Positions 12,946 through 14,416 of a DNA stretch of 64,000 bases are shown in pieces. Each line of letters opens with the position of its first letter. The first letter of the stretch is position 1. The position numbers were made by a program, and so were the translations under genes. Where the stretch lies: NCBI GenBank assembly GCA_002337525.1, contig DDGG01000030.1, positions 458 through 64,457 of the forward strand, given 5' to 3'. Under the pieces are notes generated by a model. It worked only from the letters and a program-made list of their open reading frames with translations, was not told where the DNA came from and did no database searches. This DNA is from Alphaproteobacteria bacterium UBA1908. Lineage in GTDB: Bacteria > Pseudomonadota > Alphaproteobacteria > Caedimonadales > UBA1908.

Positions 12946-13980
12946 TCATACGGATGGAATTGACAGATTTTCACCCTCTCCGGCAGCGACAAAATGAAGT
13001 GGCGCCTGGGTCATGCCGTCTATACCAAGCAGCCTGGCAATCTCCTTGTCCTGAAAAGCAGCACTTAACCATGTGTTGAGGCCCAAAGACGTCGCATTCA
13101 GCAAGAAAGTCTGAGACAGGTGCCCCGTGTCCATCAGAGCAATGCGATAGGCGCGTGAATGCCGATATTTATCCCAGCATCGATCAAAGTGAGCCACCAA
13201 AAAAACACCCATGGCAATATTTTCCAGGTAAAACTGGTTGTAAAACAGGGGAATCATGTCCTGGTACGTCACTTCATCCCCAATCCGTGTCAAGGTGTGT
13301 CCCTGAAAAGAATAGTGGTAAAGACCTTTTTCAAGACCCTGTACATTGAAAATAACAACGTATGCTTCCAAAGGATGCAACCCGCCACCCGAAGGGCTGG
13401 TTTTACGTACGCCGGCGGTATAAAATCCCCCCGAAGATTCCCGGGCATCTTCATGAATGTTGCCAAAGGTTGCACGTAAAAGGGTGCTGAGCGTTTCCAA
13501 AGACATGGGAGTGTCCCTGAAAACCCGGTTGGTCTTGCGGCTTAACAGAACAGTTAAATAGTCTTTTTCCTTTAAAAGAGCCGTATCGGCAGAAGGCAAC
13601 TCAACCACCGGACCTTTGCGGGAAAAGGTGATCTCCCGGGGCAGATCTTCGCATTCTTCGGCGTATTCCCGGATCCACTCCTTTTTTGAAGGAGGGCTGT
13701 CATAAACTGGAATGTTCTGCGTTCCCATGTGAAAAATTTTGGACAACACATCCCATTGCCAATTTGGCATTTTCAGAGGTTCTTCCTGAAGAAGCCCTCC
13801 CTCCAGAAGGTCCGTATCAATACGATCCAAAGTCGACTTGTCTTTAAAGGGACTCCAAAACAAAAGCCGCTCAAAATAAGACACATCAATTTTGAACTGC
13901 TGATGATGATAGTAATCCCAGACCAGGATATCCGACTCTTCAATTAAAAAAAATACAAAAGGATTCTGATAGAGCCTCAT
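12946..13980 (-). CDS. SagB/ThcOx-family (nitroreductase-fold) dehydrogenase with ~140-aa N-terminal extension
   Basis: Contains RKT.R.F, the PSGGGLHPLE motif, and YY/GLY..Y blocks typical of the SagB-type dehydrogenase domain. The start ATG overlaps the stop of small ORF 1. Confidence 0.75.
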   Translation of the reverse strand: MRLYQNPFVFFLIEESDILVWDYYHHQQFKIDVSYFERLLFWSPFKDKSTLDRIDTDLLEGGLLQEEPLKMPNWQWDVLSKIFHMGTQNIPVYDSPPSKKEWIREYAEECEDLPREITFSRKGPVVELPSADTALLKEKDYLTVLLSRKTNRVFRDTPMSLETLSTLLRATFGNIHEDARESSGGFYTAGVRKTSPSGGGLHPLEAYVVIFNVQGLEKGLYHYSFQGHTLTRIGDEVTYQDMIPLFYNQFYLENIAMGVFLVAHFDRCWDKYRHSRAYRIALMDTGHLSQTFLLNATSLGLNTWLSAAFQDKEIARLLGIDGMTQAPLHFVAAGEGENLSIPSV

Positions 13981-14051
13981 TAACGTTTCTTTTTGATGAC
14001 GACAATATGCACTGGATAGTTCTGGGTATCTTCCAAAAAGACTTTTTGCAT
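13980..14051 (-). CDS. Unannotated 23-aa ORF 1: MQKVFLEDTQNYPVHIVVIKKKR
   Basis: ATG at 14051. The TAA stop (13982..13980) shares one base with the SagB ATG (TAATG). It is a paralog of the ORF at 14249..14320, and differences between the two are mostly synonymous or conservative. Confidence 0.6.
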   Translation of the reverse strand: MQKVFLEDTQNYPVHIVVIKKKR

Positions 14052-14248
14052 TGTCAATCTCTTTTAAAGTTAGTTACTAACTCAAAGCGTAAAGGATATT
14101 GCGTTAAAAGGAAAATAAAAAATTCTTAAGATATTAGATAATTACTTAATTGACAAATTGGTATTTTTTGTATATTTAGTATGTAAAACTAAAAGAATAT
14201 AAATTAAGTCAATTAAGCATAAAATATCCTCTTACTTCATACGTATTT

Positions 14249-14320
14249 TTATGAAATTTTTTTAATGATAACTATATGGCTGGGATATTTTTGGATTTCT
14301 TCCAAAAAAACCTTCTCCAA
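14249..14320 (-). CDS. Unannotated 23-aa ORF 2: (M)EKVFLEEIQKYPSHIVIIKKIS
   Basis: TTG start at the position homologous to the ATG of ORF 1, preceded by AAAGGAG with 6-nt spacing. Paralogy extends ~24 nt upstream through the RBS and then is lost. Confidence 0.55.
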   Translation of the reverse strand: MEKVFLEEIQKYPSHIVIIKKIS

Positions 14321-14416
14321 TGTCAACTCCTTTTAAAGTTAAATGACTTATGATATGAATAGCAGTGTTATTCTTATTAAGCAATAATTTTCCTAAAATG
14401 TTAATATAATATTACG

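Follow-up and report, generated by a model that had tools for sequence, protein, structure and literature searches.

What are the two very short open reading frames (ORFs) that precede a gene for a SagB-type dehydrogenase in Alphaproteobacteria bacterium UBA1908, and what does this enzyme act upon? The locus lies in a 64,000-nucleotide stretch of contig DDGG01000030.1 (assembly GCA_002337525.1, positions 458 to 64,457), which is called the window here. We conclude that the ORFs are very probably functional peptide genes linked to the enzyme. Judging from the sequence comparisons below, we also consider it reasonably probable that the peptides are the precursor substrates of the enzyme. The two would then form a compact, YcaO-independent module like those that make RiPPs (peptides of ribosomal origin that are modified after translation).

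Two paralogous peptide genes in the window

The sequence-only reading of the window had placed two ORFs upstream of the SagB-type gene, and both are found there on the minus strand, with 23 codons each. ORF1 (peptide gene copy 1, 14051..13980, that is, 13980..14051 in ascending order) starts with ATG and encodes MQKVFLEDTQNYPVHIVVIKKKR. ORF2 (peptide gene copy 2, 14320..14249, ascending 14249..14320) starts with TTG and encodes (M)EKVFLEEIQKYPSHIVIIKKIS. The copies form a direct repeat of 83 nt that is 76% identical, and they stand 269 nt apart. The stop codon of ORF1 overlaps the ATG of the enzyme gene in the sequence TAATG, as had been described, which implies translational coupling of copy 1 to the enzyme. 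Ribosome-binding sites had been claimed for both copies. Copy 2 has a Shine-Dalgarno motif (AAGGAG) 6 nt upstream of its start; the AAGAGA of copy 1 is merely a degenerate one.

The pattern of differences between the copies is that of coding sequence. The peptides agree in 15 of 23 residues, and in eight codons the only change is synonymous. By codon position (1/2/3) the differences number 4/4/14, a third-position excess (at least 14 of the 22 differences) with P = 0.0035. Synonymous sites are saturated (pS 0.88), pN is 0.21 and pN/pS is 0.23, and both alternative frames are interrupted by stops. The earlier proposal that the synonymous changes reflect selection on a peptide is borne out by these values and by the recurrence of the ORFs upstream of orthologous and distant SagB genes. 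Both peptides are free of Cys; copy 1 has a single Thr and copy 2 has two Ser. No NCBIfam model fits the window peptides at E <= 0.01.

Orthologous loci of the window clade

The four closest enzyme homologs (53-61% identity) come from metagenomes and one eukaryote assembly, and their loci are numbered L001-L005. Every one of them has between one and four like small ORFs directly upstream of SagB, and at none are these absent or out of frame. L001 encodes MEKVCLEIIQKYPTHIVVVKTVGSDE and MQKISLETVQKHPEHVLIIRKVR, L002 has the peptide gene in four copies, L003 encodes MKKINLEKPTHYPVVMVRVAK, and L004/L005 encode MKKIHLELKIEYSSHIMRIKSC. Despite nucleotide divergence, each orthologous locus retains open frames of the same length. 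The metagenome scan described below brought nothing closer to the window clade (best 47%).

We built an independent hidden Markov model (HMM) from the small ORFs of the orthologous loci only, with no window sequence in it. Against the 2,236 small ORFs of the window it scores ORF2 at E = 3.8e-11 and ORF1 at 7.4e-10, and the next best at 0.3. When the model is reduced to L002-L004, the two ORFs are still found, at 2e-7 and 1e-6. A model of foreign peptides thus picks exactly the two window ORFs, which favors real peptide genes.

The sequence-only reading had given KVFLE..Q.YP.HIV.IKK as an invariant core. Across orthologs this proves too generous. The positions that recur are L6-E7 and Y12-P13 (each in 9/10 peptides) and a hydrophobic-then-basic tail. 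Both window copies have Q10, but just 5/10 peptides of the clade do.

A wider family of peptide and enzyme pairs

A scan of one genome per species and of Joint Genome Institute (JGI) metagenomes gave 160 further loci, so that 165 were fetched in all. About 115 of the 165 have a small ORF with a strong score in the peptide model, and several more are obvious by eye. Carriers belong to at least eight clades, including Pseudomonas, Burkholderiales, Bacillales and gammaproteobacterial metagenome-assembled genomes (MAGs). The pairing of peptide and enzyme is conserved across phyla. All strong matches to the peptide model adjoin the enzyme gene, typically on the same strand and 50-150 nt upstream of it. 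Family ORFs encode 21-29 amino acids, with exactly 23 codons in 97 of 122, and a Shine-Dalgarno-like motif precedes 97% of them vs 6.4% of background small ORFs.

The peptide of the Pseudomonas fluorescens group is MKAITLEANKIANLAFLVAPKAR, and IANLAFLVAPKAR is nearly invariant at about 50 Pseudomonas loci. Cupriavidus encodes MKEIKLESAKMANWTQIGEPIKK, Pandoraea and Ralstonia MKLIQLEPTLSNQSNDAYNTPHTAPMKAN, the Bacillales MKKIQLESKNFCALLPVIVRK (in two identical copies on a Priestia plasmid), and gammaproteobacterial MAGs MKKINLERGKGRSFITYIVRKNR. The features common to all clades are only length, position, an N-terminal M-x-K-[IV]-x-L-E segment in which E7 is invariant, and a basic C-terminus; a common start in the wider family is M-K-K-I-x-L-E. 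We claim no statistically supported sequence homology between clades. Among 49 Pseudomonas loci, variability at codon positions 1/2/3 is 0.089/0.054/0.179, vs 0.36 in the flanks, and pN/pS rises from 0.41 in frame to 3.9 out of frame. Substitutions between these orthologs therefore carry a coding bias, with the third position the most variable. When 10 exact peptide sequences were looked up among about 15 billion proteins, two were present, both annotated as "hypothetical protein," and no NCBIfam model fits the peptides of other clades at E <= 1.

Copy number ranges from one to four across loci, each copy with its own ribosome-binding site. There are also in-frame fusions of two full peptide units, which form ORFs of 54 amino acids upstream of SagB (MKKIKLEPTLSFQSNDAYNKPVGVPRQ then ITKIALEPALSFQSNDAYNKPVGAARK). 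Such fused double units are found in Paraburkholderia (L066, 2623-2787) and on two metagenome contigs (L137, 3746-3910; L147, 1022-1186), and they resemble the multi-cassette precursors of cyanobactin pathways. The C-terminal halves of multi-copy or fused units diverge at L002 and L066. At L097 the peptide gene, MKKLQVERKLIYPNFTVCLAKKNK, stands alone on the opposite strand, 1.7 kb off and beyond a gene for a LysR-family regulator, accompanied by a promoter-like site, AAGGAG and a terminator hairpin of its own. Among Holosporales loci that had seemed to be without a peptide gene, regex and HMM scans yielded further candidates at L017, L023, L031, L107-110 and L119 that are weak on sequence alone; those at L017, L031/L119 and L107-110 are stand-alone candidates convergent to LysR.

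In Pseudomonas alone (L027-L084), the gap that separates the peptide gene from SagB holds a conserved, GC-rich stem-loop, about 10-45 nt past the stop codon (for example, L041 5941-5973). Seven of its 12 pairs show compensatory changes, and a T-rich run often comes after it. The stem-loop could be an attenuator or an mRNA-stabilizing hairpin.

A recognition-like domain joined to a SagB-type dehydrogenase

The enzyme gene (12946..13980, minus strand) encodes 344 amino acids. By Pfam, TIGR03605, AlphaFold2 and Foldseek the protein is a SagB-type dehydrogenase that uses flavin mononucleotide (FMN), preceded by a domain like a RiPP recognition element (RRE). Pfam finds Nitroreductase alone (residues 146-334). 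The NCBIfam SagB model TIGR03605 gives 116.8 bits vs a cutoff of 78.4, which makes the enzyme a SagB family member. The FMN oxidase domain, of the nitroreductase fold, covers residues ~140-335 (12976..13563, minus strand). It contains R147-x-T149-x-R151, the FMN phosphate motif of this fold, and K270-Y271, both invariant in the family. K270-Y271 aligns with "FWKY-H" of ThcOx and is presumably the catalytic Lys-Tyr motif of the dehydrogenases of thiazole/oxazole-modified microcins (TOMMs).

A full AlphaFold2 model made with 26 homologs has a predicted local distance difference test (pLDDT) score of 81. In it, residues 8-60 form beta-beta-beta-alpha-alpha, and a long linker leads on to the oxidase domain. 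In Foldseek the whole model matches ThcOx (E = 1e-15), BmdC (7ly4_A, E = 2.6e-15, 357 alignment columns) and McbC. A sequence profile of the enzyme returns the same matches as the structure search, with BmdC at 1.5e-16.

The N-terminal domain (residues ~1-70, 13771..13980, minus strand) has three strands and two helices and includes the invariant residues W20, Y22, H25 and Q27. When the N-terminal 120 residues are modelled alone, residues 1-70 have pLDDT ~90 and a third helix has low confidence. The top PDB matches of this domain are almost all RREs, led by TbiB1 with its leader (5v1v, E = 0.03, probability 0.99). Further matches are McbB (6gos), the N-terminal domains of ThcOx, lasso-peptide B1, PbtF, CteB and SuiB, and the ids 6jx3, 8t19 and 5why are also among the top matches. 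Both the fold and these matches support the earlier suggestion that the N-terminal extension could be a peptide-recognition domain. We call it RRE-like rather than a proven RRE in view of the weak E-values and the poor model of the third helix. Pfam PqqD does not match the enzyme. Of 1.84 billion cluster representatives, a profile of the domain matches only 195. Those that are full length have ~350-365 amino acids, a size that fits the same architecture, and on present evidence the domain appears private to this enzyme family. A tblastn search with the enzyme against the entire window gave the self-match only, with no paralog or second SagB.

The window SagB protein is absent from the returns of a collection of 5.8 billion proteins (best 61%), whereas the MurA encoded in the window (8111-9439) is there at 100%. 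This MurA is 100% identical to the MurA on a marine (Tara) contig and 64-68% identical to those of Nucleicultrix, Caedimonas and Paracaedibacter, which marks the organism as an uncultured alphaproteobacterium of Holosporales-like type.

Gene neighborhood

A LysR-family regulator (14417..15325, plus strand; Pfam HTH_1 and LysR_substrate) is divergent from the peptide genes. Its start is more likely the GTG at 14450 than the listed TTG at 14417, giving a typical N-terminus, MNLDKLLAFKKV (MNLDKL...), that fits the start of HTH_1; with this start the divergent intergenic region is ~129 nt. LysR homologs adjoin SagB at L002-5, L017, L023, L031, L095, L097, L099, L107-110, L119 and L140. An OPT-family oligopeptide transporter is encoded at 16915..18807 on the plus strand (Pfam OPT, E = 1e-83), and in L001 (78% identity) and L003 its counterpart is the next gene after SagB. 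From these linkages we assign LysR and OPT to the predicted module in the clade of the window. Between the two genes is an ORF of 192 amino acids (15876..16454, plus strand) with no Pfam or NCBIfam match and no homolog in the other loci; its membership in the module is uncertain.

Pfam finds no YcaO (PF02624) among the 17 other large ORFs between 1.2 and 22.6 kb of the window. The neighbors with a Pfam match are mostly housekeeping genes, and five ORFs have no match. The window neighbors scanned include no nonribosomal peptide synthetase (NRPS), GNAT or aminoacyl-tRNA synthetase genes, and the loci examined in Pseudomonas, Cupriavidus and elsewhere have no NRPS domains among their neighbors.

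In the other clades the peptide cores track additional genes. An AurF-like diiron oxygenase and an MFS transporter accompany the ..ANLAFLVAPKAR and ..ANWTQIGEPIKK cores (Pseudomonas, Cupriavidus), and a carbamoyltransferase and an MFS transporter accompany the ..PTLSFQSNDAYN.. cores (Pandoraea, Ralstonia). The peptide/SagB unit is found with Vut_1 (vitamin-uptake type) and an alpha/beta hydrolase in gammaproteobacterial MAGs (L014, L024) and with AzlC in Neobacillus (L006). The varied small-molecule transporters beside the unit hint that its product is a small molecule.

A few other small ORFs were seen near SagB genes. Candidatus Odyssella thessalonicensis has at least four paralogous RRE-SagB loci in one genome (L015, L017, L021, L025). 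Three of them have, about 50 nt upstream of SagB, a common 11-codon ORF, M(D/N)KGNV(L/M)H..; the fourth is without an ATG, and coding by this ORF is therefore doubtful. Two "MNPMRIE" ORFs at L021 were rejected, having GTG starts, no ribosome-binding site and a position inside a longer nucleotide repeat. A candidate at L013 ("MKKVIRAV...") was rejected as the C-terminus of a 360-amino-acid gene. Finniella-like loci have a common small ORF, MTASYRVYQGVSICQFE..., upstream of SagB (L013 5874-5972, L016 1775-1846, L018 1840-1911). This ORF has no relation to the peptide family and may be no more than a sign of a conserved non-coding element.

The window also contains a dispersed intergenic repeat, at 6986-7109 (+), 12718-12896 (-), 16559-16708 (+) and 35923-36123 (-). 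It consists of GTCATTCAGAGAGAG-type units ~28 nt apart, with CGTCATTGCGA nearby at three of the four sites; the window has nine matches to the former and three to the latter, vs ~0.1 and 0.01 expected. Two inverted copies flank the block of SagB, peptide genes, LysR and the 192-amino-acid ORF. Their sites are precisely the points at which OPT and SagB are neighbors in L001 and L003, a placement suggestive of a repeat-mediated rearrangement.

Upstream blocks and intergenic elements

Each peptide copy is preceded on the minus strand by a conserved block of 21 nt: TAACTTTAAAAGGAGTTGACA at 14321..14341 for copy 2, where it spans the ribosome-binding region, and TAACTTTAAAAGAGATTGACA at 14052..14072 for copy 1. 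The consensus of both is TAACTTTAAAAG[A/G][G/A][A/G]TTGACA. Upstream similarity of ~24 nt had been reported; it does run through the ribosome-binding site and then vanish, but its measured extent is ~21 nt. The block is kept although synonymous sites in the ORFs are saturated, and it is therefore probably constrained too.

The AT-rich spacer between the copies holds 14 inverted repeats. Among them is the perfect 10-bp repeat noted earlier (14145-14154 / 14208-14217, CTTAATTGAC / GTCAATTAAG, not assigned to a strand). Its arms pair in the minimum-free-energy fold, and the fold of the spacer is unremarkable (z = -1.8). A scan of the spacer found no terminator-like site, and we rejected the 10-bp repeat as a terminator or attenuator, there being no T-tract and no significant fold. 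The AT-rich dyad TTATT-GCTT-AATAA is present, as described, in the intergenic region between LysR and the peptide genes. A direct repeat of 19 nt (79% identical, 14212-14230 and 14376-14394, AGGAWAWTTWTTGCTTAAT on the minus strand) has a copy upstream of each peptide gene; one copy coincides in part with the AT-rich dyad, the other with an arm of the 10-bp inverted repeat. Both copies are possible regulator (LysR) sites, judged by sequence and placement. An Rfam scan of the window found two tRNAs as its sole matches.

Comparison with known systems

We found no description of the present peptide/enzyme family in the literature or in curated models. Of the described families, the tiarins (trifolitoxin) come closest, although their defining features are not present here. 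We compared the two by described features. Tiarin precursors have 23-65 amino acids and are encoded immediately upstream, with a strong Shine-Dalgarno motif and an aliphatic/acidic leader motif (bioRxiv 10.64898/2025.12.02.691738). TfxB and TfxC are RRE-bearing SagB-type dehydrogenases proposed to modify a non-azoline Gln in the core; YcaO is only an accessory, and the class-defining chemistry is not azole formation (bioRxiv 10.64898/2025.12.02.691738). Five randomly chosen stand-alone SagB homologs from a similarity network were used in that study as an outgroup only (bioRxiv 10.64898/2025.12.02.691738).

The window and the wider family share with tiarins the short precursor directly upstream, the Shine-Dalgarno motif, the aliphatic/acidic N-terminal motif and a SagB-type FMN dehydrogenase with an RRE(-like) domain. 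Oligopeptide transporters likewise matter for the biology of the tiarin product. In contrast, tiarins are defined by a TfxB/TfxC pair (within ~2.7 kb), whereas the window and the other loci have a single enzyme gene. The core Gln is conserved in tiarins but is absent from the Pseudomonas peptides, and within the window clade only half of the ten peptides have Q10. No immunity gene of the GNAT or duplicated aminoacyl-tRNA synthetase type, frequent but not universal in tiarins, is among the window neighbors. Two rhizobial plasmid matches (H14, H15) were checked as candidate tfx clusters and are not tfx clusters.

With the enzymes of TOMMs, or linear azol(in)e-containing peptides (SagB, McbC, ThcOx), the present enzyme shares the FMN oxidase domain with RxTxR and Lys-Tyr motifs, and ThcOx too has N-terminal RRE-type domains. 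The sequence-only reading had held that this is no classical TOMM, and we agree, because there is no YcaO cyclodehydratase among the scanned window neighbors and no Cys- or Ser/Thr-rich core; nor is there a second nitroreductase-fold gene nearby. Peptides without Cys and poor in Ser/Thr leave no azoline to oxidize.

BmdC (7ly4) has the same build of RRE-like and Ox domains and serves an NRPS carrier domain, its recognition-like domain being considered a relic (PMC8795117). The two enzymes share the long wrapping linker and a length of ~330 amino acids. Unlike BmdC, the present enzyme has a conserved small peptide gene beside it and no NRPS among its scanned neighbors, and on the latter ground we do not consider the module BmdC-like in function.

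Among NCBIfam models, TIGR04511 (SagB_rel_DH_2, putative peptide maturation dehydrogenase) is the best-scoring full-length one over the Ox domain. Its 160.1 bits are below the 240-bit cutoff, so the enzyme is no member; the match spans model positions 140-366 only, and the N-terminal domains therefore differ. Precursors of the PqqA/MftA type have ~23-30 amino acids, are well conserved, are recognized by PqqD-like RREs and are turned into small molecules. The likeness to them is by analogy only, in the very short, well-conserved precursor; there is no radical-SAM enzyme, no PqqB-E or Mft gene and no sequence similarity. The module has the generic RiPP arrangement of a short ribosomally encoded precursor gene clustered with a putative modifying enzyme. 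A "SagB" cluster of Pseudomonas Os17 was set aside as a different system, with a 650-amino-acid protein and an 85-amino-acid small protein.

Proposed function and alternatives

That the peptides are substrates of the enzyme is, in our view, the probable explanation. The earlier RiPP-like interpretation, of duplicated short precursors followed by a tailoring enzyme, gains support from the recurrence of the ORFs upstream of SagB and from the RRE-like fold. The M-x-K-[IV]-x-L-E segment would serve as a very short leader that docks as an extra beta-strand on the RRE-like domain. The rest of the peptide (..Y-P-x-H-I-V-x-I-K-K) would be presented to the FMN site of a dimeric SagB-type oxidase domain and undergo a two-electron oxidation other than azoline-to-azole chemistry. 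Given their conserved linkage, the divergent LysR may control the unit, and OPT may carry the product, or a fragment, through the membrane. The module would be assigned to a known kind, RRE-guided flavoenzyme modification of ribosomal peptides. We suggest, more tentatively and with some doubt, that it is a new RiPP class or makes a peptide-derived metabolite or signal. Such a class would have a single RRE-fused SagB-type flavoenzyme, non-azoline oxidation, precursors of 21-29 amino acids and a seven-residue leader. Its product may, by analogy with tiarins, be a transporter-dependent "Trojan-horse" or signaling molecule.

Several observations weigh against the substrate interpretation. A leader of seven residues is unusually short, and the cores have no obvious common modifiable residue, Pro and Tyr being common but not universal. 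With E-values of 0.03-1, the RRE matches are weak. An HMM from the non-window clades misses the window peptides (E = 4.5 and 15), for which reason the link across clades rests on position, length and the N-terminal motif. Several loci of Holosporales (Caedibacter, Finniella) have no detectable peptide gene within 4-6 kb, and an all-against-all comparison of their intergenic small ORFs found no shared family. In a neighbor-joining tree the Caedibacter and Finniella lineages are interleaved with peptide-bearing ones, which suggests loss or relocation of the peptide gene. Finally, BmdC shows that the build of RRE-like and Ox domains can work without a leader peptide (PMC8795117).

This last precedent for a non-peptide substrate is also an argument for the strongest competing explanation, which we think unlikely but worth serious attention. 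The peptides may be translated without being substrates, either as a partner or regulatory ligand that binds the enzyme through its RRE-like domain, turning it on or off or stabilizing it, or as a secreted signal, while the dehydrogenase acts on a small molecule. In the signal version, to which the same estimate applies, OPT uptake and LysR sensing would control the locus. The peptide is conserved over its whole length within clades, as at the ~50 Pseudomonas loci, which is more like a folded partner or a cofactor precursor than the hypervariable core of an antibiotic. A small-molecule-type transporter is always nearby (MFS, OPT, Vut_1, AzlC or EamA), and some Holosporales have the enzyme without a detectable neighboring peptide. 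Multiple copies and fused units with divergent C-terminal halves (L002, L066) are, however, typical of precursors and not of stoichiometric subunits, and core type co-varies with additional tailoring enzymes. As noted for BmdC, the edge strand of the RRE-like domain would aim a bound peptide at the FMN site (PMC8795117).

Two further explanations deny the peptide product a role. The ORFs could be cis-acting regulatory leader peptides (upstream ORFs) that couple or attenuate expression of the dehydrogenase, which we judge improbable. They are of leader-peptide size, the TAATG overlap implies coupling in the window, and the Pseudomonas stem-loop, at ~10 nt past the stop, could be an attenuator; hairpins are, however, also common after precursor genes in RiPP operons. 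Regulation in cis does not account well for tandem arrays of two to four copies that each have a ribosome-binding site, for fused double units, or for the L097 copy, which has a terminator of its own and is 1.7 kb away from SagB on the opposite strand. The window has no terminator or alternative structure, and conservation here peaks at the N-terminus, while known arrest peptides have their conserved part at the other end, the C-terminus. Copy number, the fused units and the L097 copy point to a trans-acting product rather than a cis element, as does the way core type tracks extra tailoring genes. Still less credible, to the point of being nearly dismissed, is a repeat that is a non-coding DNA or RNA element (a duplicated promoter or operator, or a small RNA) with incidental ORFs. 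The perfect TTGACA hexamer and conserved 21-nt block just upstream of each copy, the AT-rich region with many dyads and the adjoining LysR gene would suit it. It is largely refuted by the third-position bias, the low pN/pS and the saturated synonymous sites of the window pair. Equal-length open frames at every orthologous locus despite diverged nucleotides, the Shine-Dalgarno motif before nearly all family members and the absence of any Rfam match in the window beyond the two tRNAs also count against it.

Significance

If the peptides are substrates, this would be among the smallest RiPP-type modules known, with a ~23-amino-acid precursor and one enzyme, and it would show what a SagB-type flavoenzyme does without an azoline to oxidize. 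The family is widespread, in the Pseudomonas fluorescens group, Burkholderiales, Bacillales and relatives of amoeba symbionts, and its peptide genes are almost never annotated, which makes them an annotation blind spot. Many of the Pseudomonas carriers are culturable and genetically tractable, so the question is directly addressable. For the organism of the window, a Holosporales-like marine alphaproteobacterium, the set of LysR, peptides, enzyme and OPT could be a signaling or antagonism system of a host-associated bacterium.

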